This document shows, piece by piece, positions 1 to 12,587 of a stretch of 64,000 nt of DNA. Position 1 is the first letter of the stretch. Every line of letters starts with the position of its first letter. This DNA comes from Planctomycetota bacterium (GTDB taxonomy: Bacteria; Planctomycetota; JAJSAM01; JAJVHW01), in NCBI GenBank assembly GCA_965248445.1, contig CBDFJG010000004.1, positions 1,440,001-1,504,000 of the forward strand, read 5' to 3'. The translations under genes were made by a program, and so were the position numbers. The notes under the pieces were generated by a model. That model made no database searches. It had not been told where the DNA came from and worked only from the letters and a program-made list of their open reading frames with translations.

Positions 1-213
1 CCCGATCTGCGCGCGCACGAAGTCCGCCGGCTTCTCGTCGCCCGGCTCGAAACCCATGTCGGCGAGCAGCTTCCCGAAGTTGGCGATGTGCTGCTCGGCG
101 TCGTCGCGTTCGCCCTCGGCCTTCTCGCGTCGGCCGCGCTCGTCGTCGAGTGCGCGATTGGCGGCGCGGAGTTCGGCGCGCAAGGTGTCGATCTGCTTGT
201 CGGTCGTCGTCAT
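1..213 (-). CDS. Phage-like coiled-coil hypothetical protein (runs off window start)
   Basis: Manual translation from ATG at 213: MTTTDKQIDTLRAELRAANRALDDERGRREKAEGERDDAEQHIANFGKLL..., open to base 1. The ATG overlaps the stop of the upstream ORF (ATGA). Confidence 0.65.
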   Translation of the reverse strand, partial: MTTTDKQIDTLRAELRAANRALDDERGRREKAEGERDDAEQHIANFGKLLADMGFEPGDEKPADFVRAQIG

Positions 214-632
214 GCGCGCCCCTCCGGAATCCTGACGCCGTCAGGTAGTGGCCGAAACCACATGAAGTCGGTGACGCGCGTCAGCCCCGCCCGACTCGGG
301 TGCGGGTCGTGGACCATCTCGGTGCCGATGCCGACGACAGCGTGCGACCGACCGCGAGGTCCGTCACCCCCGATGATCGTCGCAACGTCGGCAGGGACGG
401 CGTGCGCGTTCTCCCCGTCGCAGAGGTAGACGCGTAGTCTCCAGTTCTCGCGCGCGAGATCGACGGTGATGTTGAACCAGTGCCGCTCTACGTCTTCGTT
501 GCTGTGGAACTCCAAGATGTGGGGCACCTGCTCGGCATCAACTCCGAGGATTGACGCGATGCAACAGCGATAGCAGTCGCCGCCGTCTCCGAGAATCGTC
601 TGGTCGACGGGCCAGATGGCCGGCGCGGTCAC
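210..632 (-). CDS. Phage-type hypothetical protein, possible papain-like (Cys-His-Asp) fold
   Basis: GTG start overlapping the upstream TGA (GTGA). Motifs QTILGDGGDCYRCCIASILG ... HAVVG ... HDPHPSRAGL. Confidence 0.65.
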   Translation of the reverse strand: MTAPAIWPVDQTILGDGGDCYRCCIASILGVDAEQVPHILEFHSNEDVERHWFNITVDLARENWRLRVYLCDGENAHAVPADVATIIGGDGPRGRSHAVVGIGTEMVHDPHPSRAGLTRVTDFMWFRPLPDGVRIPEGRA

Positions 633-925
633 GGTTGCACCGCCGGGAACTCCCGGACGCGCAAGTCCTGGGGCCACTCGGCGGGATCGCCGCCCTTGCG
701 GTCGCGGAGACGGACGACAGTCCGCACCTCCTCGGGAGTGAAGCGCCGGCACTCGCAACGGAACCTCGACGAGCTGAACAGTCGATTCGCGCCCCGGGCA
801 CCGCAGCACCGTGACCGGGTGAAGTAGTGCGCGAGGCGCGGGTGCCCGCAGGCGCAGGGCGCGTAGGGATTGGGACGCCGCGCGTCCGTCTTCGCCATGC
901 CGCGGGAGAGCTTTGTGCCGTTCAT
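629..925 (-). CDS. Small Cys/His-rich phage-like protein
   Basis: CACGHPRLAH...CECRRF putative metal-binding motif. C-terminus RKGGDPAEWPQDLRVREFP resembles the tail of phage Gp37Gp68 (DUF5131) proteins, recalled from memory. Coupled by start/stop overlaps on both sides. Confidence 0.6.
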   Translation of the reverse strand: MNGTKLSRGMAKTDARRPNPYAPCACGHPRLAHYFTRSRCCGARGANRLFSSSRFRCECRRFTPEEVRTVVRLRDRKGGDPAEWPQDLRVREFPAVQP

Positions 926-1065
926 CGCCCGACACCCCGGGGACCGCCTCGGGGAACGGTACGCACCGCACAGGGGGCGACGGAGTGCAGCGGAGGCGGT
1001 GAATTCGAGCCCACGGAGGCCCTCGCGCGGGTCCCGGGGTCATTGCAAATCCGTGGCCCCCTCAT
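922..1065 (-). CDS. 47-aa hypothetical peptide
   Basis: Not in the ORF track. ATG at 1065 overlaps the upstream stop and its TGA (922-924) overlaps the next ATG, so it fills the gap exactly. Confidence 0.4.
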   Translation of the reverse strand: MRGPRICNDPGTRARASVGSNSPPPLHSVAPCAVRTVPRGGPRGVGR

Positions 1066-1484
1066 GCGGACGCCTCGGCGACGACGCCGTCGGGCCACGC
1101 GCTGTCAGGCCACGGGTCGGCGTAGTGTCGGTCGCGCAACTTGGGCGGGACGGAGCGGGTTGCGGCTGCGAGGCGGGCGGTCGCGCGCCGCCTCCACTTC
1201 ACCGCGGACTCGTGCATCCGCTGCCGGCGCTTGCACGGGGCGCACCAATCCTCCGGCTCCCGCGTGCCCCACTCCTGGTGGTAGTCGCCGTAGAAGTCCA
1301 TCGACTCGGACGTGACTCGATGGCGCCAGCACGGCGGGTCGTCGCCCTCGACCTTGTCGCCCTTGCGGGTGGCCCAGCCGCGGCTATCCTTCTCCTCGAG
1401 TTCGCACACGACCTGGGCGCGCAGCACCTTCCAGAACTGCGCGAAGCGGCGCGCGCGACCGAGGGCGCGGATCGCACGGCTCAT
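1062..1484 (-). CDS. Phage-like hypothetical protein
   Basis: 140-aa ORF with CxxC (WCAPCKRR), ATGA-coupled at both ends. Confidence 0.6.
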   Translation of the reverse strand: MSRAIRALGRARRFAQFWKVLRAQVVCELEEKDSRGWATRKGDKVEGDDPPCWRHRVTSESMDFYGDYHQEWGTREPEDWCAPCKRRQRMHESAVKWRRRATARLAAATRSVPPKLRDRHYADPWPDSAWPDGVVAEASA

Positions 1485-1532
1485 GCCGCCACCGCCAGGT
1501 CTTCAGCTACACCGGGACGCGTAGCGTGAGCG

Positions 1533-1564
1533 TGGGACACATCCTGGGACACATCTTGGGACAC
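1533..1564. repeat. Three direct copies of TGGGACAC at a 12-bp period
   Basis: TGGGACAC-atcc-TGGGACAC-atct-TGGGACAC at the junction between the phage-like ORFs and rho. Confidence 0.8.
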
Positions 1565-1646
1565 TCGCGAACTCGCGCGAGGTCGTGCCAGGGGGTGGGC
1601 TTGAGGCTGTGAGGGCTCGCGGGGCCGGGGCGGAGTTAGGCTCCAG

Positions 1647-3107
1647 CTACCGGATGTGGAAGTGCTCGAGGAAGCCCTTGTTCGTGCTGGTGGTTTCCAG
1701 CTTGTCGACGAGCAGTTCCATCGCCTCTTCGGGCTTCAGCTTGTTGAGCACGCGGCGGAGGGTCCACGTGAGCTTGAGGACCTCCGCGGGGACGATCTTC
1801 TCCTCCTTGCGCGTGCCGGACTTGCTGATGTCGAGAGCGGGCCAGATGCGCAGTTCGGCGAGCTTCCTGTTGAGGACGATCTCGGCGTTGCCGGTGCCCT
1901 TGAACTCCTCGAAGATCACCTGGTCCATGCGGCTGCCGGTGTCGACGAGCGCCGTTGCGATGACGGTGAGTGAACCGCCGCCCTCGACGTTGCGCGCGGA
2001 ACCGAAGTGTCTCTTGGGGTGCTCCATCGCGCGGCTGTCGAGGCCGCCCGAGAGAGTGCGGGATCCGGAGCCCGTCTCCATGTTGTAGGCGCGTGCCATG
2101 CGGGTGAGCGAGTCGACCAGCATGACGACATCCTCGCCGGCTTCGACGAGCCGCTGCGCGCGGGCGAAGGCCATCTCGGCGACGGCGACGTGGCACGGGG
2201 CCAGGTCGTCGAGCGAGCTCGCGATGATGTCGCCCTTGATGGTGCGGCGGATGTCGGTGACTTCCTCGGGGCGCTCGTTGATGAGCAGGACGAGGACGTG
2301 CACGTCGGGGTAGTAGGTGTTGAGCGCGTTGCCGAGCTTCTGAAGGATGACCGTCTTGCCCGCGCGGGGCGGGGCGACGATCAGGCAGCGCTGCCCGAAT
2401 CCGACGGGAGCCAGCAGGTCGATCACGCGGGTCGTGACGTCCTTCCCGTCGCCTTCGAGCTGCATCCACCGCTCGGGGTCGATGGTCGTCAGGTGCTTGA
2501 ACGGGACCCGGAACTTGTACTCGTCGGGATACTGACCATCGAGCGTTCCGATCTCGTGGCACGTCGGGCGGTGCCCGTTGCGGCCGGGGATCTCGACCTT
2601 GCCCATCACCCGCGTGCCGCTGGCGATGTTGTACTTCTTGACGAGCGCTGCGGGCAGGTAGACGTCGTCGTGTTCGGCGATCAGGTTCTTGTGGATGCGC
2701 CGCAGGTACGCGAAGCCCTCGGGCATGACCTCGGCGATGCCGTCGGCGGTCTCGGGGAGCTCTCCGCCCGGCATGTACGGGGGCTGCTTCTGGTGCCAGC
2801 GCTGCGGACGTGCGCCGCCGCTGCCGCCGCCACGCCGGCCACCGCCGCCACCACCGCCGCGCCGCGCGCGGTTGCCTCCGCGCTTCTGCTGGCGCTTGCC
2901 GCCGCCGCCACCACCGCGGCGTCCGCGGGTCTTCTTGGGCTGGGTGGCGCGGGCGTTGCCGCCGCCACCACCGCCGCCTTGGCCGCCGCCTGCGCCGCGT
3001 CGGCCGCGTCGGCCGCGCCGTTTGCGCCGGCCGCCGCCTGGGCCGCCGCCGGATCCGCCGCCACCACCGCCGCCCGCTGGGGGGCCGCTTGAGTCACTGG
3101 GAGTCAT
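1647..3107 (-). CDS. rho: Transcription termination factor Rho with Gly/Arg-rich N-terminal extension
   Basis: RNA-binding domain (GFAYLR...DDVYLP), P-loop GQRCLIVAPPRAGKT, ERPEEVTD, DSLTRMARAYN, FEEFKGTGNAEI, SKSGTRKEE. Start placed at ATG 3107; the ORF track extends to 3179. Confidence 0.97.
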   Translation of the reverse strand: MTPSDSSGPPAGGGGGGGSGGGPGGGRRKRRGRRGRRGAGGGQGGGGGGGNARATQPKKTRGRRGGGGGGKRQQKRGGNRARRGGGGGGGRRGGGSGGARPQRWHQKQPPYMPGGELPETADGIAEVMPEGFAYLRRIHKNLIAEHDDVYLPAALVKKYNIASGTRVMGKVEIPGRNGHRPTCHEIGTLDGQYPDEYKFRVPFKHLTTIDPERWMQLEGDGKDVTTRVIDLLAPVGFGQRCLIVAPPRAGKTVILQKLGNALNTYYPDVHVLVLLINERPEEVTDIRRTIKGDIIASSLDDLAPCHVAVAEMAFARAQRLVEAGEDVVMLVDSLTRMARAYNMETGSGSRTLSGGLDSRAMEHPKRHFGSARNVEGGGSLTVIATALVDTGSRMDQVIFEEFKGTGNAEIVLNRKLAELRIWPALDISKSGTRKEEKIVPAEVLKLTWTLRRVLNKLKPEEAMELLVDKLETTSTNKGFLEHFHIR

Positions 3108-3619
3108 ACGTCTTGCACCCCATACGGGGAGCCTCTCTCTTCCGGACCCGCTGGTCGCGGGTCTCACTCGAACCGGCATCTCGGCCGCTGGCGTGCTTCC
3201 CCGGTCTCACGGAGACACAGCACACCCGGACGCCCTGCCGGCGGATCGTCGATCTGGCGCTGTGGCGCAGTCGCGGCGATCGGCCGGACGGGACAAAGTT
3301 GCATCGGGGGAGGGAACCGATCCGGCTACAGGCTGCCCGATAGGGTCGGGCCGACCTGAGAGGCCGTCATGGGCTTCTTCCTCGTCCGGCACGCCTGCCA
3401 GTCCTGGCGGGTGCGCGGGCGGTTCCGATGTCCTTTTCTACATCGGCAAGACCGGGTCCTCCCATGGAAATCAACTCGGGCCCCGGGAACTTCCCGAGCC
3501 TGGACAGCCTCGATTGTGTGCCTGACGTCGTCTCTCGCCCCTGCGTGGGGGGCCGCGTAGGCCGCCCCTGCGGTTGAGCCGAGAACCGCCTCAACGGCGT
3601 CAACCGTTGAGCCAAACAT

Positions 3620-4034
3620 GAATGCCGGAGCGGCCCGTAAGCCGGATCCTGTGACCCACCCCCGAAGGGGCGGGCGACGACCATTTCTCTGGGACGACCG
3701 TTGCCGGCCGCCTCGAACGCCCTACCCGGGAGTCATGACGAGACGGGCAGCCTCGCAGAGGGCCGAAGCCCTCATCCCCCCCTATGTGGGCTTTCTCCGG
3801 ACGGGGTTTACCGTGCCGCTGACGTCACCGTCAGCGCGGTGGGCTCTTACCCCACCGTTTCACCCTTGCCTCCTCCCCGGCCCTCGCGGACCGAGGCGAT
3901 CGGCGGTCTGTTCTCTGTGGCACTTTCCCTGGGCTTGCGCCCGGTGGGCGTTACCCACCGTCGTGCCCTGTGGAGCCCGGACTTTCCTCGGCGCCCGCGA
4001 AGGACGCCGCGGCCGTCCGTGCCGCTCCGGCAAC
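3620..4034 (-). ncRNA. rnpB: RNase P RNA (type A)
   Basis: Minus strand carries GAGGAAAGTCCGGGCTCCAC near the 5' end, AGTGCCACAGAGAAC, GGTGAAACGGTGGGGTAAGAGCCCACC and the 3' ACAGGATCCGGCTTAC. The P1 helix ends are complementary (3623-3634 and 4021-4032). Confidence 0.97.
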
Positions 4035-4075
4035 TCTGATTCTAGCACTCCGCGGTCTTTGGCTACGATCTCGGC

Positions 4076-5143
4076 ATGCGGGAGGGGTTGCCGCCGGAAG
4101 TTCCGGCGATCGTATTGGAGCGCGCCGAGGCGCTTGCCGAGGCGGTCGCACTGAGCGCATCGGAGCTGTCGGGACAGCTCGAATTCTCGACGTACAACTG
4201 CGCGGCGGTCGTGCCGCCCGCGTTGGTGGGCGAACTGGGTGTCGAGAAGGACCTCGTGAAGGCGGTCGTGCGGCGGGCGCTGCGCACGCGGCTGAAGTCC
4301 GCTTGGCCGGAGCGCCGCTACGAACCAGAGCGGCCCGAGGTCATCGTGACCGCGCGGTGTGGCGAGGCGCCGGTGGCCGAACTCGCGGCGCTGCCTGTCT
4401 ACGTGGCGGGGCGGTACATGAAGCACGCGCGTGGGCTGTCGCAGACGGTCTTCTACTGCCGGCGTTGTCGCGGTAAGGGACGACTGCGCGGTGCAACGTG
4501 CAGTCGATGCCGCGGCAGCGGGCGGTTCGTGGAGGAGTCGGTGGAGGACTTCGTGCGCCCCGTGATCGAGCGCGCGATGCAGGGGCGCGGCTCGTCGTTC
4601 CACGGAGCGGGGCGCGAGGACGTGGACGTGCGCATGCTCGGCACCGGGCGGCCGTTCGTCGTGACGGTCGAGAGTCCCCGGTTGCGCAGCGTGGATGCAG
4701 CTGCGGTGATCGCGGCCGTCGCAGAGGCGAGCGGCGGACGTGTGACGGTCGCTGATCTGGTGGTGGTCGACCGAGCCGTGCGCCGGCAGATCACCTCGGA
4801 GCACGGCGAGAAGGTGTACATGGTCGAGGTGCGTGCGGTCGGCGGAGCGTTGCCCGAGGGCGCCGCAGCGCTGCTCGCTCCCCTGTCCGGCGCGACGCTC
4901 TCGCAGCGGACTCCTCAGCGGGTCGAGGCGCGGCGTGCAGACAAGGTGCGGGAGCGCCGCGTGCGCGAACTCGAAGTGATCGAGTCGAGTGCGGATCGGC
5001 TGCTGCTGCGGCTGACGACGGATCCCGGGCTCTACGTTAAGGAGTTCGTGTCGGGGGACGACGGGCGGACCGTGCCGTCCGTGGCGGGGGCGCTCGGCAT
5101 TGCGTGCCTCTGCACGGAGTTGGACGTGGTGGCGGTTCGCTGA
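4076..5143 (+). CDS. pus10: tRNA pseudouridine(54/55) synthase, Pus10 family (archaeal/eukaryotic type)
   Basis: YVAGRYMKHARGLSQT; CRRCRGKG...CSRCRGSG; ESVED; catalytic HGAGREDVDVRMLGTGRPFV; QRTPQRVEARRADKVRER; GLYVKEFVSGDDGRTVPS; ELDV. Confidence 0.93.
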   Translation: MREGLPPEVPAIVLERAEALAEAVALSASELSGQLEFSTYNCAAVVPPALVGELGVEKDLVKAVVRRALRTRLKSAWPERRYEPERPEVIVTARCGEAPVAELAALPVYVAGRYMKHARGLSQTVFYCRRCRGKGRLRGATCSRCRGSGRFVEESVEDFVRPVIERAMQGRGSSFHGAGREDVDVRMLGTGRPFVVTVESPRLRSVDAAAVIAAVAEASGGRVTVADLVVVDRAVRRQITSEHGEKVYMVEVRAVGGALPEGAAALLAPLSGATLSQRTPQRVEARRADKVRERRVRELEVIESSADRLLLRLTTDPGLYVKEFVSGDDGRTVPSVAGALGIACLCTELDVVAVR

Positions 5144-5198
5144 GGAGCGTCGCGGTGTGGTGGGGGCGTAGCGGGAGGCGAGGCGCGTCCATGCCGCT

Positions 5199-5352
5199 GC
5201 AGAAGCGGTTGTTGACCGCTTCTGCCCTCCGCTCCGGCGCTCCGCGTTCGCTCCTGCCCTACCGTCCACCGGACGCTGGGCTGCCGCTGTGCGGCACCGT
5301 CGCTCACCCCTCGCGCGCTGACGCGCGTGCTCGGGTCGCGGCCGTTCGCTCG
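5199..5352. repeat. Intergenic hairpin/REP-like mosaic between convergent pus10 and GNAT
   Basis: 11-bp stem GCAGAAGCGGT/ACCGCTTCTGC (5199-5225). The TGAC-loop hairpin plus TCGGGTCGCGGCCGTTCGCTCG (5307-5352) recurs at 15011-15055. Confidence 0.6.
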
Positions 5353-5513
5353 GACCGGCGGGCGTGCGCTCTTCGCCGCGATCGCGCCTGCTCGAACTGA
5401 GTCCGCGCTGGCTGCCGGCGCGAGACCGCAGCGCCGGTCCTCGCTCACCCATCCCAAACCCCCGCCCACCCACTTGGGGGAGGACGCACGGGAAGTGGCT
5501 CTGGTTACGTGCG

Positions 5514-6285
5514 CTACTTGATCGTGTAGCTGCGCAGGCTGGCGGCCTTGTGGAAGCCGACCTTGCGCGCGAGCATCTCGCCGGCGCCGTCGCGGTTCGG
5601 GACGATGGCGCAGGCGAGGCGACCCTGGCCGTGGTGGGCCTTGACCAGGCGGCGCATGCAGGCGGTGGCGTAGCCCTGTCGACGGCTCTCGTCCTTTGTC
5701 GCTACGACCAGGCGTGCGTGATTGACCGACGTGTCAGCCGTCAGCGCGGCGCAGACGACTTCGTCGTTGATCACGATGCCGTAGCCGCCGCCGGCCATCA
5801 GCAGTTCGTTCACGGACTCGTAGGTGCGCAGAAGGCCCGGGATGCCGAGCGCCACGACGGAGTCGGCGTCGGCCAGACGCAGACGGCGGAGTCCCTCGAC
5901 GCGATCCATCTCCGGCGTGTCCTCGATGTCGGAGAACCAGACGACGGAGTGGCTGTCGGCCGACACACCGGCGTGGTGCTCCTCGAAGAGGGGCGCGAGC
6001 TCATCGCTGCAGAGCACCTCGACGGGCCCCGTGAGCGCGGCGAGGTACGTCGCGAGCGGGCCGTTCTCGACGTGACCGAACGCCCAGATCTGGTCCGGTA
6101 CTCCGGGCTCGCTCGGGACGCGAATCGCCACGGCGCCCGGCGCGCTCGGCGAGTCCACGTCGACAGTGCCGCACCTTGCGCTCCAGGGCGTGGAGCGGCG
6201 TGGTCGTCCACGGCGTGTCCGGCATGAACGGCCGCAGCGCGGGGAGCTGCTCCGTCTCGAGGGTCTTGAGAGTTGCTTCGCTCAT
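5514..6285 (-). CDS. GNAT-family N-acetyltransferase (apparent +1 frameshift near 6172)
   Basis: C-terminal acetyl-CoA motif VATKDESRRQGYATACM...LARKVGF. The N-terminus MSEATLKTL... is in another frame; removing one G joins the two. Confidence 0.7.
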
Positions 6286-6289
6286 GGTT

Positions 6290-9200
6290 TCAGTCCTGAC
6301 TGGCGGGAGACCCCGCCTCATTCCGATCGGGGCCTACGCCGCTGCGCTTGAGGATGAAGTCGAGGGCAGCCACGGTGTGCTCGTCGATGTAGACGTTGTC
6401 GTCCCGGCCGTGGCGGCGGGGCCGGGCGCTGCGTTCGGCGAACGCTGCCAGGGTCGCCGGGAGCTCCTCCGCGGCCTCTCGGCTCCGATCCGGGTCGTCC
6501 CAGGCGTCGAACGTGTCGTCGGCGTCCAGGATGACCTCGGTGGTGGTCCCCTCTTGCAGAGCTGCGACGCGGGTGTCGCCCAGCGCGGAGATGACCACGC
6601 TGTGAACGTCATCGATGTCGAACGGTCGTGTCAGCACCCGGTCGATGCCGGCGTGACGCGCCGGCGTGTCGTCGATGCCGTGACCCGGCTCGGCGAGCAG
6701 CACGATCCGGAGAGCCGGCCGGCTGCGACGGGCGAGCCGGCAGAGTTGCCAGCCGCTGTCGCGCCCGAGCGCGAGCTCCGTGATCAGTACGTTCAGCGAG
6801 TTGTTCGTCGTCGTGCCGAGGATCTTCGCCGCCTCCCCGTACGTGCCCACTCCGATCAACTCGACGCCGCGGCTCTCGAGGCCGCACCGCAGACGCTCCG
6901 CAATCCGTCCGTGCGCCGACACGTGCAGGATGCGCGGCGACGGTGGGAGCGCCGCGGAGCCGACGGTGTCCCCGGTCGAGTCGCTGCGCGCGTTGTATGC
7001 CGGCAGCACGATCGTGAACGTGGTGCCGTCCTTCGACGTCCGGACGTCGATGCGGCCGTCGTGCGCGCGCACGATGCCGTAGCAGATCGACAGCCCCAGA
7101 CCTGAACTCGGCCCGGCGGGCTTCGTGGAGAAGAACGGGTCGAAGATCTTGTCGCGCACTTCGGGGTCGATCCCCGTGCCGGTGTCGGTGACCCGCAGGC
7201 CGACCGAGTCCTCGCCGCGGTCGAACGACTCGACGGTGACGGTGCCACCGAGCGGCATCGCGTCGAGCGCGTTGAGCACCAGATTGAGCATCGTCTCGCG
7301 CAGTTCCGACGGGTTGCCGTGGATCTCGCGGCGGGCGTTCTTGCGGCCGACCACGGTGATCGAGATCCCGTGCTCCTGCTCGATCTCGTCGACGCGCTGT
7401 TTCACGAACGCCACGACGTCCTTCACGATCGCGTTGGCGTCCACCGCCTCGGACTCGAGCAGGCCCGAGCGGGGCCGCGTGAACTCGCGGATGCGGCGCA
7501 CGGTCTCCGTGCCGTCGAGCGCCGCGCGCTCGATGACCCGCGCCGCCTCCGCCGCTTCGCCCGTGAGGCCTTCCATGAGGAGGAACTGGGCGTTGCCGAG
7601 GATCGCAGCGAGCACGTTGTTGAAGTCGTGCGCCACGCCGCCGGCCATCTCGCCGAGCGCGCGGAGCTTCTCCGAGCGCGCCGTCTCTCGCTGCGCCTCC
7701 GTGCGCTTGGTGACATCGGTCACCACGCCGCATGCGCCGATGACCCGGCCCTCCTCGTCCATGAGCGGCATGGCCGAGACGATCGTGCGCGCCTTGCGGC
7801 CGTCGGAAACGATCCACGAGACCTCGTAGCGGCCGTTCTCCCCCGCGTGCCGCAGCGCCAGTTCACGCCGGTAGATCGCGATGGAATCGGCCGTGAGCAT
7901 CTCGGGGATGGTGCGGCCGATCACGTCGTCCAGCGATCGCTTGAGCAGGGATGCAAAACGATCGTTGGCGAACGAAATCCGGTCCTCGGAGTCGGTGATC
8001 ACGAATCCCTCGGTCATCGACTGGATGAGCACGGCGATCCGCCGCTGGCTCTCCTGCAGCCGCGCGAGAGTCGACTGGAGCCGTACACGCGACGTGTTGA
8101 GTGCGATTGCCACCGACGCGATCTCGTCTTGCCCGCGCACAGGGATGTGCTTCGACAGATCACCGCTCGCCATCGCAACTGCGGAGTCCTGCAGCGGCGC
8201 GAGGCGTTTTTGAAGCCAGGCTGCGAAGCGCACACCGGCAAACACGGCCATACCACCAAACAGCACGGAGAGCACGAGCATCGCGGCGCCGATCCGCTCG
8301 GCAACGTCGCGGCTCCTGCGCGACGCGTCGAAGGCAGTGTCCACGGCGGTGTATCGCGGCAGAGCCGACACGACGCACCAATCGGAGTTCGGGACGCTGC
8401 ACGCGGCGGAGACCGCCTGCTCGCTCATGAGCGTCATGCCGTTCTCGCTCGCCGGCAGACGGTCCGAGTCCCCGAGCAGCTGAGTCAGCTCGTCGTCGAG
8501 CCGGAGAGCGCGGTTGTCCGTGTCCGGCGCGATTCCGAGCGCGTCGAACGCGGCCTGCGGCACGTGCAGCGGCGTGCGGTCGCGCGCGAGCAGAAGCGTC
8601 GCTGCATGCGGTCGGATTCCACCGCCGGCCTCGAGGACTTCCGCGATCTCGTCGAAGTCGAGCACGACGCGGACCCATGCGTATTCGCTCCCGGCCGCAT
8701 CGGTGATCGCGGTCTGGTACGAAATCGCACGTCCACTCGTCGTCTCGTACGGGCCGTGCCAGCCGTCCGTCGCGGCCGCCTCAACGCGGGACATTTCGAT
8801 CGGCATGGCTCGGAGGAGATCCGACGCCGCGCTCTCGTACCGTCCGGGCGAGGACGGGGGCTCGGCGAGGAGGACGCCTTCGCCCTCGATCCACACGGAC
8901 ACGCTCTGGATCGGGGTGTCGCCGCGGGTGACGACCCGCACGACGTCGCCCAGGTCGGCGGCACGCTCGCAGAGCGAAGCCAGGTGCGCGTCGTCCGTGG
9001 TGGACGCCCGCGCGGCAGCGGTGACGGCGGGAACGCCGGCCTCGATGAAGGCGACGTCACGCTCCTCGAACACGATTCGCTCGACACTGCGGTCCCCGGC
9101 GTCCAACGGTCCCGGCCCGCGACGGCGCACGACGTCGGCGACGGCCGCGGCGGCGAGCTCGACGCGTTCGCGGCGTTCGGCGGCCGCGCGTGCGGCGTGC

Positions 9201-9400
9201 CGCGCCTCGAGCAGTGTGTGGCGGCGCAGCCACGAGAGCGAGTGATCGCGGGTTTCGCGCTGAATGGTGGTGTCGAGTTGCTGCGTCCCGACGAGTGTCA
9301 GCCCGACTCCCGCCGCGAGCATCAGCAGCGCGCACGCCAACGTCACCCAGAGGACCGGCCTCCGGATGCTGTGTCGGTTGTCGTGGCGCGTCCTGAACAC
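6290..9400 (-). CDS. Hybrid sensor histidine kinase (TM-periplasmic Cache-like-HAMP-PAS-HisKA-HATPase-atypical REC)
   Basis: Two TM segments, HAMP (GQDEIASVA), PAS, H-box GVAHDFNNVL, N-box NLVLNALDAM, G boxes DTGTGI and GLGLSI. Confidence 0.93.
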   Translation of the reverse strand: MFRTRHDNRHSIRRPVLWVTLACALLMLAAGVGLTLVGTQQLDTTIQRETRDHSLSWLRRHTLLEARHAARAAAERRERVELAAAAVADVVRRRGPGPLDAGDRSVERIVFEERDVAFIEAGVPAVTAAARASTTDDAHLASLCERAADLGDVVRVVTRGDTPIQSVSVWIEGEGVLLAEPPSSPGRYESAASDLLRAMPIEMSRVEAAATDGWHGPYETTSGRAISYQTAITDAAGSEYAWVRVVLDFDEIAEVLEAGGGIRPHAATLLLARDRTPLHVPQAAFDALGIAPDTDNRALRLDDELTQLLGDSDRLPASENGMTLMSEQAVSAACSVPNSDWCVVSALPRYTAVDTAFDASRRSRDVAERIGAAMLVLSVLFGGMAVFAGVRFAAWLQKRLAPLQDSAVAMASGDLSKHIPVRGQDEIASVAIALNTSRVRLQSTLARLQESQRRIAVLIQSMTEGFVITDSEDRISFANDRFASLLKRSLDDVIGRTIPEMLTADSIAIYRRELALRHAGENGRYEVSWIVSDGRKARTIVSAMPLMDEEGRVIGACGVVTDVTKRTEAQRETARSEKLRALGEMAGGVAHDFNNVLAAILGNAQFLLMEGLTGEAAEAARVIERAALDGTETVRRIREFTRPRSGLLESEAVDANAIVKDVVAFVKQRVDEIEQEHGISITVVGRKNARREIHGNPSELRETMLNLVLNALDAMPLGGTVTVESFDRGEDSVGLRVTDTGTGIDPEVRDKIFDPFFSTKPAGPSSGLGLSICYGIVRAHDGRIDVRTSKDGTTFTIVLPAYNARSDSTGDTVGSAALPPSPRILHVSAHGRIAERLRCGLESRGVELIGVGTYGEAAKILGTTTNNSLNVLITELALGRDSGWQLCRLARRSRPALRIVLLAEPGHGIDDTPARHAGIDRVLTRPFDIDDVHSVVISALGDTRVAALQEGTTTEVILDADDTFDAWDDPDRSREAAEELPATLAAFAERSARPRRHGRDDNVYIDEHTVAALDFILKRSGVGPDRNEAGSPASQD

Positions 9401-9555
9401 GTAGAGAATCCCCCGCGGCCCACCGGCGAGCCACTCCGGTGCGAACAGGGACTCATCGGGCGGCGCCCGCCCGGAACTGGATCACGAGCCTGAGCGAGCG
9501 TGATCCACGGGCCGGATTCGAGCCTGGAACGAGGTCTCGGCGCGGAGTTGGCGCT

Positions 9556-10725
9556 CTAGTCGGCGCCGAGAGCGTTCAGGCCGGTCAGGTCCATTCCCAC
9601 GATCAGCATGTGGATGTCGTGGGTGCCCTCGTACGTGATCACGGATTCGAGGTTGGCCATGTGGCGTCCGCAGACGTACTCGTCGGTGATGCCGCTCGCG
9701 CCCAGGATGTCGCGCGTCGTGCGGGCGCAGTCCAGGGCCATTGCGACGTTGTTGCGCTTGGCCAGCGAGACCTGCACGTGACGCAGCTTGCCTGACTCCT
9801 TCAATCGACCGAGTCGCCAGGCCAGGAGCTGCGCGCGGGTGATCTCCGAGGCCATCGTCACGAGCTTGTTCTGCACCATCTGGAAGCGGCCGATCGGCTT
9901 GCCGTAGATGATCCGGGTCTTGGCGTGCGTGAGTGCTTCGTCGTAGCAAGCCTGTGCCGCGCCCACCGCGCCCCACGCGATGCCGTAGCGCGCGCTGTTC
10001 AAACACAGGAGTGCGCTCTTCAGACCGGTCGTGCCGGGGAGCAGCGCGTCCTCGGGGACGTGGCAGTCGTCGAAGATCAGCTCGCTGGTGATGCTGGCGC
10101 GCAGCGACCACTTCCCGTCGATGTCCGGCGCGGTGAAGCCCTGCGTGCCCTTCTCGACGAGGAATCCGCGGATGCCCTCGGTGGTCTTGGCCCAGACCAG
10201 CGCGACGTCCGCGATGGAGCCGTTGGTGATCCACATCTTGGCGCCGTTCAGCACCCAGCCGTCACTCGTGCGCTTCGCATTCGTGATCATGCCACCCGGG
10301 TCGCTGCCGAAGTCCGGCTCGGTCAGTCCGAAGCAGCCGATCGCGTCGCCAGTCGCGAGCCGGGGCAGCCACTTCTGCTTCTGCTCCTCGGAGCCGAACG
10401 CGTGGATCGGGTACATGACGAGCGACCCCTGCACCGAGCAGAACGAACGCACGCCGCTGTCGCCGCGCTCGAGTTCCTGGCAGATCAGGCCGTACACGAC
10501 GTCACCGAGTCCCGCGCAGCCGTAGCCCTCGAGGCTTGCACCGAGCAGGCCGAGCTCGCCCATCTCGCGCGCCATCTGCCGCGGGAACGTGCCGTCCTTG
10601 AAGTGTTTGGCGATGCCGGGCACGACGCGCTGCTCGACCCAGTCGCGCACCGTGTCGCGGATCATCTGCTCCTCCTCGGTGAGGAGGTCGTCGACGTCGT
10701 AGAGGTCGATCGCGTCGTAGGCCAT
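9556..10725 (-). CDS. gcdH: Acyl-CoA dehydrogenase, glutaryl-CoA dehydrogenase type
   Basis: ELERGDSGVRSFCSVQGSLVMYPI, GCFGLTEPDFGSDPGGM, NLESVITYEGTHDIH. ATG at 10725. Confidence 0.88.
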   Translation of the reverse strand: MAYDAIDLYDVDDLLTEEEQMIRDTVRDWVEQRVVPGIAKHFKDGTFPRQMAREMGELGLLGASLEGYGCAGLGDVVYGLICQELERGDSGVRSFCSVQGSLVMYPIHAFGSEEQKQKWLPRLATGDAIGCFGLTEPDFGSDPGGMITNAKRTSDGWVLNGAKMWITNGSIADVALVWAKTTEGIRGFLVEKGTQGFTAPDIDGKWSLRASITSELIFDDCHVPEDALLPGTTGLKSALLCLNSARYGIAWGAVGAAQACYDEALTHAKTRIIYGKPIGRFQMVQNKLVTMASEITRAQLLAWRLGRLKESGKLRHVQVSLAKRNNVAMALDCARTTRDILGASGITDEYVCGRHMANLESVITYEGTHDIHMLIVGMDLTGLNALGAD

Positions 10726-10751
10726 GGGGAGATCTCCTGAGTCGGGTGAGT

Positions 10752-12587
10752 CTACGCGGCGAACTGCAAGCGGTGGAGCGTCGCGTAGATGCCGTCCTGC
10801 TCGACGAGTTCCGCGTGCGTCCCCTGCTCGCGCAGACGGCCGTGATGGAAGACCAGTATCCGGTCTGCCTTGCGGATGGTGGAGAGGCGGTGGGCGATGA
10901 TGAGCGTCGTGCGTCCCTCTTGGAGACGGTCGAGCGCCATCTGGATCAGATGCTCGGTCTCGGAGTCCACGCTGCTCGTGGCCTCGTCGAGGACGAGCAC
11001 CGCCGGGTCCTGGGCGAGCGCCCGCGCCAGCGCCAGGAGCTGTCTCTCCCCGACCGAGAGGCGGCCTCCCCGCTCGCCGACCTGGCTGTCCAGGCCATCC
11101 GGAAGACGCGCGATGCAGCGGTCGGCGCCCACGGCTGTGCACGCGGCCTCGAGCTGCTCCCGCGTCAGCGACGGATCTCCCATGCGGAGGTTCTCGGCGA
11201 TCGTCCCCGCGAACAGGAACACGTCCTGAGGCACGACGATGATGCCCCCGCGCAGCGAACGCAGGTCGTAGCGCCGCGCGTCCTCGCCATCGATCCGCAC
11301 GACGCCCGCATCGACGTCGTAGAGCCGCGTCACGAGGCTCGCTACCGTCGTCTTCCCCGCGCCGGTTGCGCCCACAAGGGCGACGGTTTCGCCCGGCTCG
11401 ACGTGGAAGGTGATGTCCTCGAGCACCGATTGCTCCGGCAGGTAGCCGAACGTCACGTCCTCGAACGCGACCTCTCCGCGCAGCCGGTCGGGGACGAGCG
11501 GATTCTCCGGTGTCTTGAGTTCGGCCTCGCGGTCGAGCAGGCGGAACAGCCGCTCCGCCGAGGCCATCGAGCCCTGCAAAATGTTGAACTTCTCCGCCAC
11601 GTCGCGGATGGGGCGGAAGAAGATCTCGAGGTAGAACAGGAACTGCGTCAGCTCGCCGAACGAGAGCTGGTCGCCGATGATCCGTTTGGCGCCGAACCAG
11701 ATGACGATCGACTTCCCGATCGCCGAGAGGAGCTCGACGAGGGGGAAGAACACCGCGAAGTTCCGCACCGTCGAGAGGTGCGCGTCGGCGAGTTCGCGAT
11801 CCTGCGCGCGGAAACGGCGTCCGCACTTCTCTTCCTGCACGAACGCCTGCACGACCCGGACGCCTGAGACCGACTCCTGGATGGTCGAGTTCACGACCGC
11901 CAGCTTCTCTCGCACCAATCGGAACGCGCGGCGGGACCAGACCCGGAAGAAGTGCGTCGCGATCATCAGCGGAGGCACCACGACAAGCGCAGTCAGTGCA
12001 AGCCGCGCATTGACCGCCGACATCCAGATGACGATGCCCACGAGCAAGAAGATGTCGTGGAATATGGCGTCGAGTCCCGATGTCAGCAGGTCAGAGAGCG
12101 CCTCGACGTCGTTGACCACGCGGGTCACCAGGCGCCCTACGGGGTTGCGGTCGAAGAACCGCAGCGACTGATGCTGGACGTGCCGGAATGCCTGCACGCG
12201 GAGGTCGCGCATGGCCCGCTGGGCCACGCGGTTGATCCAGCGCACCTGGAACACCCGCAACGTTGCGGAGAGCAGCGCGATCGCGGCGATGCCGCCGGAC
12301 CAGAGCGCCACCGTCCCGGCGACCTCCTCCCACGCAGCCATGCCGCGCCCGCTCGAAACGGCCTCGCGGAGCGGCCCGTCGAGCACCTGCTTGAGCAGCT
12401 CGCCCTGCAGAAGATCCAGGAACACGACGATCGTGACGGCCACGATCGACGTGGCGAACAACGAGCGGTACGGCGTGACGTACCCGAGCATGCGGCGCAC
12501 GAGGGAGACGTCGAACGCCTTGCCCGTGACCTGGTCGGCGTCGTGCTGGAACGAGCTGGAGCCGGAGCCGGAGGCGCGGACGCTCAT
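10752..12587 (-). CDS. ABC exporter, fused permease/ATPase (half B of heterodimer)
   Basis: TM domain, Walker A GATGAGKTT, degenerate signature LSVGE, Walker B LVLDE, AHRLST. Confidence 0.95.
   Translation of the reverse strand: MSVRASGSGSSSFQHDADQVTGKAFDVSLVRRMLGYVTPYRSLFATSIVAVTIVVFLDLLQGELLKQVLDGPLREAVSSGRGMAAWEEVAGTVALWSGGIAAIALLSATLRVFQVRWINRVAQRAMRDLRVQAFRHVQHQSLRFFDRNPVGRLVTRVVNDVEALSDLLTSGLDAIFHDIFLLVGIVIWMSAVNARLALTALVVVPPLMIATHFFRVWSRRAFRLVREKLAVVNSTIQESVSGVRVVQAFVQEEKCGRRFRAQDRELADAHLSTVRNFAVFFPLVELLSAIGKSIVIWFGAKRIIGDQLSFGELTQFLFYLEIFFRPIRDVAEKFNILQGSMASAERLFRLLDREAELKTPENPLVPDRLRGEVAFEDVTFGYLPEQSVLEDITFHVEPGETVALVGATGAGKTTVASLVTRLYDVDAGVVRIDGEDARRYDLRSLRGGIIVVPQDVFLFAGTIAENLRMGDPSLTREQLEAACTAVGADRCIARLPDGLDSQVGERGGRLSVGERQLLALARALAQDPAVLVLDEATSSVDSETEHLIQMALDRLQEGRTTLIIAHRLSTIRKADRILVFHHGRLREQGTHAELVEQDGIYATLHRLQFAA

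Follow-up and report, generated by a model that had tools for sequence, protein, structure and literature searches.

A bacterial Pus10 encoded back to back with the RNase P RNA gene in a planctomycete, a probable stand-in for TruB

The stretch of DNA analysed here, called the window throughout, comprises 64,000 nucleotides (nt) of a Planctomycetota bacterium (assembly GCA_965248445.1, contig CBDFJG010000004.1, positions 1,440,001 to 1,504,000). Near its beginning the gene for RNase P RNA, rnpB, stands head to head with a protein-coding gene, and the open reading frame (ORF) at 4076-5143 is, judged by profile matches and a predicted structure, a genuine, intact and conserved bacterial Pus10. 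The enzyme family is a known one, met here in a domain of life where it was not expected. The product attributed to it, pseudouridine at position 55 of the tRNA T-loop (Psi55), is among the most conserved RNA modifications. The features of the locus are collected in Table 1. Families of the phylum are numbered f1, f2 and so on, these being our own labels, and the window's genome (G000) belongs to f1.

Table 1. Features of the pus10 locus, in window coordinates (aa, amino acids; MjPus10, Pus10 of Methanocaldococcus jannaschii)
Feature	Positions	Strand	Basis
Rho (transcription terminator), backbone neighbour	1647..3179	-	Pfam Rho_RNA_bind and ATP-synt_ab
rnpB, class A RNase P RNA, full length	3622..4029	-	RF00010, 259.3 bits (gathering score 100), E 2.1e-83, model 1-367/367; 5' end = 4029
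Divergent intergenic region, 46 nt	4030..4075	.	between rnpB 5' end and pus10 ATG
pus10 coding sequence, 355 aa, ATG start, stop included	4076..5143	+	ORF list, profile matches, predicted model
Predicted N-terminal accessory (THUMP-related) domain, about residues 1-105	4076..4390	+	predicted model aligned to 2v9k; TIGR01213 match from profile position 74 on
Pseudouridine synthase catalytic domain, about residues 106-355	4391..5140	+	Pus10_C 109-354; alignments of other synthase structures restricted to 106-355
Forefinger-loop Cys knuckle, C128-x2-C131 ... C142-x2-C145	4457..4510	+	invariant in 21/21; matches MjPus10 ffl1/ffl2 region (PMC3753934)
Active-site motif H176-G-A-G-R180-E-D182-V-D184, D182 = catalytic Asp	4601..4627	+	clade alignment; motif in PMC3753934
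GNAT-type acetyltransferase gene, convergent with pus10	5514..6158	-	Pfam PF12746, 39.4 bits
Hybrid sensor histidine kinase, backbone neighbour	6290..9400	-	Pfam HAMP, PAS, HisKA, HATPase_c, Response_reg

The NCBIfam equivalog for Pus10, TIGR01213, matches residues 27-354 of the window protein on profile positions 74-401 of 402 with 286.6 bits against a cut-off of 200, and Pfam Pus10_C (PF21238) matches residues 109-354 with 184.8 bits against a cut-off of 27. Cbf5 models reach 19.6-23.4 bits against cut-offs of about 240, and the TruB family models (TIGR00431, TruB_N) have no match in the protein, which places it outside that family. Human PUS10 (2v9k) is its only sequence match in the PDB, with an E of 1.1e-22. 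A model predicted with AlphaFold from 21 clade members has a mean predicted local distance difference test (pLDDT) score of 94.4 and a predicted template modelling (pTM) score of 0.88, and Foldseek, queried with this model, also ranks 2v9k first (E 1.3e-25, TMq 0.74). In VIA-align, model residues 1-355 align to residues 33-520 of 2v9k over 324 residues (Z 25.0, root-mean-square deviation 3.8 A, 26% identity), and both domains of Pus10, the THUMP-related accessory domain and the catalytic domain, therefore appear to be present. The next structural matches, Cbf5, TruB and TruA, have Z of at most 14 and are confined to residues 106-355. The Pfam accessory-domain model carried by archaeal matches, PF22023, has no match in the window protein at E<=0.01; it is the predicted structure in which the THUMP-related domain is present. 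The initial annotation had called the protein a Pus10 rather than a TruA-, TruB- or RluA-type enzyme, and that call is borne out.

The 45 closest proteins in the protein database (P0002-P0046) have 48-59% identity to the window protein and 271-361 bits. Beyond them the matches stay at or below 221 bits and 37-44% identity, and the named ones are archaeal Pus10. The Joint Genome Institute (JGI) names of such proteins already read Pus10; they have been annotated by public pipelines, apparently without discussion in the literature found. Among the matches listed, 74 of 80 public Pus10 loci are archaeal and 6 are labelled bacterial, and the closest titled loci are contigs of metagenome-assembled genomes titled 'Planctomycetota bacterium' (L017, L018, L056).

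Every Pus10 signature named in the initial annotation is found in the translation, namely GRYMKHARGLSQT, CRRCRGKG with CSRCRGSG, GREDVDVRMLGTGRPF, QRTPQRVEARR and GLYVKEFVSGDDGRTVPS. An alignment of 21 clade proteins, with a mean column identity of 50%, keeps R180, E181, D182, D184, Y248, K322, L349 and the cysteines C128, C131, C142 and C145 invariant in 21 of 21 members. Residues G179-R180-E181-D182-V183-D184 form the motif GREDxD, with an Arg two residues before the catalytic Asp, and H176, six residues before it, is at least 90% conserved among the 21; the motif and a His at that place are both described in PMC3753934. By the offset from D182 (D275 of MjPus10) and by alignment with archaeal sequences, the counterparts of MjPus10 Y339, I412-K413 and L440 are Y248, V321-K322 and L349. 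The thumb segment QRTPQRVEARRADKVR (277-292) and the knuckle at 128-145 align with the archaeal thumb and forefinger loops. The paired CxxC motifs noted earlier are indeed there, and they are an ordinary feature of the archaeal Pus10 forefinger loop rather than something special to bacteria. The missing N-terminal Cys cluster, also reported earlier, is confirmed by the alignment: the cluster CxxC...CxxC occurs in 5 of 5 aligned euryarchaeal sequences and 0 of 5 long-form planctomycete sequences, and residues 1-108 of the window protein hold just two isolated cysteines (C42, C95), neither in a CxxC.

A comparison with known enzymes places these features. With archaeal Pus10 (TIGR01213; studied in M. 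jannaschii and Pyrococcus furiosus) the window protein has in common the catalytic domain, the motifs GRYxK, GREDxD, QRTPxRV and YxKE, the forefinger knuckle, the thumb loop and the THUMP-related accessory domain, at the 37-44% identity given above. It differs in lacking the first ~70 profile positions with their four-Cys zinc cluster, in 8 extra residues separating the Cys pairs of the forefinger knuckle, in the thumb, where His376-Arg377 of MjPus10 reads Ala285-Arg286, in the absence of a TrmY partner, and in its bacterial host, whose tRNA genes and rnpB are otherwise bacterial. At 530 aa, human PUS10, whose structure fits best across the two domains, exceeds the window protein in length; its accessory domain is the larger one, and it has an N-terminal zinc site that the window protein lacks; conversely, the Cys knuckle segment of the window protein is a gap in the human sequence. 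The human enzyme coexists with TRUB1/2 and has additional non-catalytic roles (PMC9957541). Bacterial TruB (TIGR00431) has presumably the same product, Psi55, and a common catalytic-core fold (Z of about 13 over residues 106-355), yet it belongs to a different family: it carries PUA where Pus10 has THUMP, lacks the forefinger loop and uses an HxGxLD active site (PMC3753934). Across the phylum the two genes hardly ever share a genome. Finally, there are short, THUMP-less Pus10 proteins in planctomycetes (f7, f45, f76, f84), of the same family and phylum and in hosts likewise without TruB, which cover only profile positions ~160-401 in frames of ~270-300 aa, whereas the window protein keeps its accessory domain.

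In earlier work, Pus10 is stated to be 'not in Bacteria' (PMC7912444, 2021), 'not in Bacteria and yeast' (PMC5682645) and 'absent in bacteria' (PMC12710931, 2025), and Psi55 is assigned, in reviews as late as 2025 and in textbooks, to TruB in Bacteria, with Pus10 only in Archaea and Eukarya (PMC7912444, PMC9957541, PMC12710931). A literature search on Pus10 in bacteria or planctomycetes, its transfer and its distribution, with subscription journals and supplements outside its scope, found no report of a bacterial Pus10; a prior characterisation in this clade, which would have undone the novelty claimed for the gene, is thus missing from the literature searched. The window contributes the full-length Pus10 beside rnpB, the comparison with the insertion site in f3, the secondary gain on the host tree and the count of genomes with neither Pus10 nor TruB.

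The host assembly is 5.40 Mb long in 4 contigs, 92.1% complete and 0.17% contaminated, and the contig bearing pus10 measures ~2.04 Mb. The guanine-plus-cytosine (GC) content is 0.69-0.72 across window positions 1-12000, and that of the pus10 region equals its surroundings, which agrees with the host-like composition described at the outset. The ORF is intact, as had also been said, and its ATG lies slightly farther from the rnpB 5' end than the ~40 bp first estimated. No longer form of pus10 exists, because the open frame is 365 codons and its ten additional upstream codons hold no start codon. The rnpB match is the sole Rfam match at gathering score in the window, and ARAGORN finds no tRNA gene in it. 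A chimeric contig had been named as a possible source of error. Separately assembled contigs of runs X1 and X2 bridge the junction identically, X1 spanning 3904-6500 and X2 3904-5993 with zero differences, and X1 also covering 2500-3862; the sole break in this coverage, 3863-3903, falls in the conserved rnpB core, where the sequences of many organisms meet. These contigs check the assembler and not the biology, because the runs are of one sample, from which the assembly itself may come. An independent check of locus integrity comes from conserved synteny, the rnpB-pus10 arrangement being found in 8 related genomes.

The host genome was searched for the enzymes that act on the T-loop, and none of truB, trmA, trmFO and trmY, the genes that the initial annotation had singled out for this check, was found. 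TruB TIGR00431 has no match at E<=0.001, the control being positive in 14 of 14 genomes; the best match of TruB_N (11.8 bits) lies inside an RluA-type gene; and tblastn with four planctomycete TruB queries reaches a best E of 0.012, the queries recovering one another at E<=6e-44. An ORF of 707 aa in another frame of L014, also among the queries, gave a best E of 7e-9; its matches lie in the part downstream of truB and are not TruB. For 5-methyluridine (m5U) at position 54, no TrmFO is found, nor any TrmA-type TIGR02143 match, nor the RumA-type cross-matches seen in 12 of 14 controls, and the best PF05958 match has 14.2 bits, under the cut-off of 23. TrmY (PF04013) has no match. The genome does hold other pseudouridine synthases, five RluA/RsuA-type genes and one TruA, and a tRNA substrate: read in a simple register, the T-loop begins with TTC[GA]A in 48 of the 56 tRNA genes predicted, with another 2 off by two bases. 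Since a PF05958-family gene is present in 5 of 5 genomes of the sister family f2, the lack of m5U enzymes is not common to all Pus10 carriers. As a separate observation, G000 has no member of the m5U methyltransferase family (PF05958: TrmA, RlmC, RlmD), and 23S rRNA m5U would then also be missing. MnmG (GidA, TIGR00136) likewise has no match in G000; cross-matches of the TrmFO model to MnmG occur in 0 of 7 f1 genomes, 0 of 5 f2 genomes and, weakly, one of 4 f3 genomes, and are present in 21 of 24 other sampled families, a pattern from which the order may lack the pathway of the wobble-uridine modification mnm5U34.

In the genomes surveyed, Pus10 and TruB seldom occur together. Of 41 relatives, counting the own genome, 16 have Pus10 and 16 have TruB over the respective cut-off, with a split truB copy in G009 besides; no genome has both and 8 have neither. 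The phylum sample is an even draw of 401 genomes from 104 families, with Pus10 scored over its cut-off and TruB at E<=0.001. In this sample 62 genomes carry Pus10 and 204 carry TruB (198 over cut-off): Pus10 stands alone in 59, TruB alone in 201, both are present in 3 and neither in 138. TruB is thus missing in 59 of 62 Pus10 carriers against 138 of 339 non-carriers. The three genomes with both are G057 and G083 (f44) and G350 (f87), and in G350 the coexistence is real because that genome is a single 9.2-Mb contig. By our own count from the tables, 19 of the 104 families hold Pus10 and 61 hold TruB, with both only in f44 and f87, and 17 of the 19 have no TruB in any sampled genome. Family by family the pattern is often uniform, f7 having Pus10 in 12/12 and TruB in 0/12, f24 Pus10 in 11/11 and TruB in 0/11, and f6 Pus10 in 0/20 and TruB in 20/20. 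Another five Pus10 matches, weak ones of 20-36 bits, fall on diverged genes resembling TruB. TruB-like genes that are diverged and score far under the cut-off (E 1e-11 to 1e-25) were also seen in G072 and G096 (f52), G079 (f57), G246 (f66) and G211, G256, G284 and G298 (f88), and some of them touch Pus10 profile positions 291-373 as well. Genomes with neither gene include G027, G028, G030, G021 and G022, and in f15 TruB is found in 4/23 and Pus10 in 0/23; such genomes make no Psi55 or else owe it to a third enzyme.

The history of the gene was approached with a host tree and a gene tree, and the node supports quoted for either are those of starred branches. In the host tree, a FastTree reconstruction from RpoB of 57 genomes with one or few per family, f1 stands beside f2 (98), followed by f3, which has TruB and no Pus10 (99), and then by f53 and f28, both with TruB (99). 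By parsimony, the gain of pus10 and the loss of truB probably lie on the stem of f1+f2. The other carriers fall into the host groups f5/f44/f65, f99/f67/f24/f74, f75/f87, f40, f16 and f12, and the families with the short form (f45, f84, f7, f76) group as a single clade (99). The Pus10 state requires 9 changes on this tree, and starred branches impose 6 of these. In the six independent pairs that differ in Pus10, TruB changes in the opposite direction in 4.3 on average and in the same direction in 0.

The careful Pus10 tree has 89 rows, of which 53 are bacterial, 35 archaeal (at most 3 per order, from the matches listed) and one is the 'Elusimicrobia' contig. The phylogeny proposed in the initial annotation was therefore made with archaeal sequences and without the eukaryotic ones, and the tree is unrooted because no eukaryotes are included. 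It recovers f1 (100/99), f2 (100/98) and f1+f2 (100/96), and one split (98/99) sets 32 archaeal rows with the 'Elusimicrobia' contig apart from all planctomycete rows with three DPANN-type archaeal rows. The short planctomycete proteins form one clade (99/91), which is joined to these three archaeal rows (100/99). In the quick tree the long forms appeared as one clade (37 rows; Shimodaira-Hasegawa-like approximate likelihood ratio, SH-aLRT, 87); this was not upheld, since the careful tree needs 2 changes and has them as one clade in 10% of 200 bootstraps. Two independent cross-domain acquisitions, one of the long and one of the short form, were likewise not established: the approximately unbiased (AU) test does not reject a single clade of all 53 bacterial rows (difference in log-likelihood 18.2, p 0.166), a grouping that was named after the tree was seen. 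On these sequences the number of cross-domain events may be one or two, and pus10 is, by the same trees, old in the phylum, evolving with its hosts within families. The f1+f2 ancestor probably gained the gene secondarily, from within the planctomycete pool. An old cross-domain acquisition had been proposed for this lineage at the start; a cross-domain step there was, though deeper in the phylum, and this lineage itself probably obtained the gene from another planctomycete. Two side branches deserve mention. The three archaeal rows that group with the short planctomycete form (L025, L044 and L062, one of them titled Iainarchaeum) suggest a possible transfer, in either direction, and the Pus10 of L064, the contig labelled Elusimicrobia, is nested in Thermoplasmatota, by recent transfer or as a mis-binned archaeal contig.

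The synteny with rnpB bears on the insertion. A divergent rnpB beside pus10 is found in the window and in 6 of 6 other f1 loci (L130, L017, L009, L008, L011, L129), which makes 7/7 for f1, and in 2 of 4 f2 loci (L007, L006); among 30 loci of other families scanned, it is found in none. The synteny looked for in related genomes is thus kept in f1 and in half of f2 and is absent from the rest. In the f2 genome G012 (L202), pus10 and rnpB are on one contig, still divergent yet ~4.8 kb apart, which points to an insertion between them in that genus. Wherever the flank is long enough, f1 loci have the order Rho-rnpB-pus10-GNAT-kinase, with the GNAT gene seen beside pus10 in 5 loci (L008, L009, L011, L129, L130) and Rho or the kinase in 4. 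Rho is syntenic in f1, f2 and f3 loci, and the f3 order is Rho-rnpB-kinase without pus10: in G013 rnpB ends 20 nt from the kinase ORF, and in G009 the order is kinase, an 840-nt gap, rnpB and Rho. The orthology of the f1 and f3 kinases is uncertain, as the homology is only 32-37%. The simplest account of these gene orders is that pus10, in f1 together with the GNAT gene, was probably inserted beside rnpB in the f1+f2 ancestor.

The distance from the rnpB 5' end to the likely pus10 start is 25-115 nt among the loci, being 46 in the window and 25, 25, 25 and 34 in four f1 loci. With so little room, the promoters of rnpB and pus10 must overlap or lie inside each other's genes, and in the window the 46 nt have to accommodate the promoter of rnpB together with, at a minimum, the -10 region of pus10. 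A hexamer TACGAT is located at 4064-4069, 6 nt before the pus10 ATG, and a TAnnAT-like hexamer is seen by eye 6-10 nt before the start codon in most of 9 aligned loci. Because this hexamer is so close to the start codon, the pus10 mRNA is possibly leaderless or near-leaderless. A scan of 3500-5600 for a consensus sigma-70 promoter and an intrinsic terminator found none. Co-regulation of pus10 with RNase P RNA is possible from this layout, and the adjacency may merely mark the insertion site. Of the divergent tRNA-maturation locus envisaged in the initial annotation, the divergent arrangement therefore stands; its functional reading does not hold up as well, since only two families have the adjacency, which resembles an insertion site.

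Taken together, we consider it probable, at roughly 0.75, that the pus10 product would be an active stand-alone synthase making tRNA Psi55 in place of TruB, a view built on sequence comparison and gene distribution. Pus10 would convert the conserved T-loop U55 of tRNA to pseudouridine, which is the job of TruB in other bacteria. From work on the archaeal and human enzymes, the accessory domain would dock the tRNA acceptor end, the thumb and forefinger loops would pinch the T-loop, and the target uridine would be flipped into the pocket, where D182 would catalyse the isomerisation. From the distribution of the gene, Pus10 would have entered Planctomycetota from Archaea long ago and would have reached the f1+f2 ancestor secondarily, landing between rnpB and the histidine-kinase gene, after which truB, now redundant, may have been lost. 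The replacement of TruB that was suggested for this lineage at first is in line with its absence from the genome and from nearly all carriers in the phylum.

Several points weigh against this reading. The main one is that TruB is commonly lost without Pus10: 138 of the 401 genomes have neither gene, and the loss is thus not specific to Pus10 carriers. Five such genomes, 90-97% complete, have no TruB_N match even at E<=1, and because genomes this complete exist, TruB can vanish in this phylum without Pus10 as a necessary replacement. The 57 genomes of the RpoB tree were picked with their Pus10 and TruB state known, and the sign test on independent pairs is not significant (median p 0.125) and underpowered, because there are only 6 of them. 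For the host genome alone, the absence of TruB is not proven, as the assembly is 92.1% complete in 4 contigs. The RNA run X5 covers 3681-3989 only, which is the conserved rnpB core and probably from other organisms, and it is uninformative on pus10 expression. Finally, the four-Cys zinc cluster (C31, C34, C106 and C109 of MjPus10) is missing, and characterised Pus10 enzymes have it. This N-terminal cluster counts as an accessory feature: MjPus10 carrying C106A/C109A retained both activities in vivo (PMC3753934).

A refinement of this function, compatible with it, is that the enzyme is dual-specific like MjPus10 and makes Psi54 as well as Psi55, giving an archaeal-style T-loop without ribothymidine; judged from its residues, we would place this somewhat below even odds. 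The determinants of Psi54 in MjPus10 are the forefinger segments C227-R231 and C238-V249 and residues R273, Y339 and L440, with the thumb pair H376/R377 and the N-terminal Cys pair being less strict (Joardar et al. 2013, PMC3753934). The window protein has a full-size forefinger loop with both Cys pairs, as well as R180, Y248 and L349, all tied to Psi54 activity by that work, and the host lacks every m5U54 enzyme searched for (TIGR02143, PF05958 and TrmFO). Its H176 is the residue found in archaea expected to make both modifications, the Psi55-only Thermococcales having Lys there (PMC3753934). On the other hand, the thumb His is an Ala, the N-terminal Cys cluster is absent and the C106A/C109A mutant of MjPus10 made less Psi54 in vitro (PMC3753934), TrmY, which follows Psi54 in many archaea, is absent from the genome, the sister family f2 has its PF05958-family gene throughout, and the Psi55-only Pyrococcus enzyme also keeps most of the listed determinants. 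We find unlikely, as a whole, the farther-reaching picture in which f1 and f2 would run an archaeal-style tRNA elbow, with one imported enzyme writing Psi54-Psi55 on all tRNAs, no ribothymidine, and pus10 and rnpB promoters overlapping back to back and so coupling 5' processing and T-loop modification in transcription.

Alternatively, Pus10 would act on another RNA (rRNA, RNase P RNA or other) or mainly as an RNA chaperone, and truB would have been lost independently. The genomes with neither gene, the three that keep both (G057, G083, G350), the abutment of pus10 on rnpB in 9 genomes and the non-catalytic microRNA-processing role of human PUS10 (PMC9957541) could all be explained in this way; we nevertheless hold it improbable, for every characterised Pus10 acts on tRNA U54/U55 (PMC7912444, PMC9957541), the active site is invariant in all 21 clade members, TruB is missing far more often in carriers than in non-carriers (59/62 versus 138/339), and the rnpB adjacency is absent from the 30 loci of other families. 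The chance that an archaeal fragment was mis-assembled or mis-binned into a bacterial genome is close to nil: metagenome-assembled genomes can be chimeric, and L064 may illustrate the case with its Thermoplasmatota-like Pus10, but here the GC of pus10 is that of its neighbours, on the long contig the gene is flanked by bacterial rnpB and Rho on one side and by the GNAT gene and histidine kinase on its opposite side, the junction is spanned in other assemblies, the same five-gene order is found in other f1 genomes, and the protein falls among planctomycete sequences (48-59% identity), with archaeal ones farther off (37-44%).

If Pus10 does take the place of TruB, about 1/6 of the sampled genomes of a bacterial phylum, nearly always without TruB, would represent a clear cross-domain non-orthologous displacement. 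They would also offer a natural system for asking what TruB gives beyond Psi55, for example its proposed role as a tRNA chaperone, and a compact Pus10 without the zinc cluster would be suited to structure-function work on the choice between Psi54 and Psi55. The 138 genomes of 401 with neither gene raise the question whether Psi55 is made there at all, and TruB is unsafe as a universal marker when the completeness of planctomycete genomes is scored. The finding is of solid interest to specialists in tRNA modification and is directly testable.

Two minor observations concern the neighbourhoods. The Rho protein encoded at 1647-3179 has an N-terminal extension of ~125 residues, almost all Gly and Arg/Lys runs, which precedes its RNA-binding domain. 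In f24, a tRNA gene lies immediately 3' of pus10 on the same strand in 2 of 5 loci scanned (L132, 2795-2868; L108, 1312-1385), and this is another pus10 adjoining an RNA gene of the tRNA pathway.

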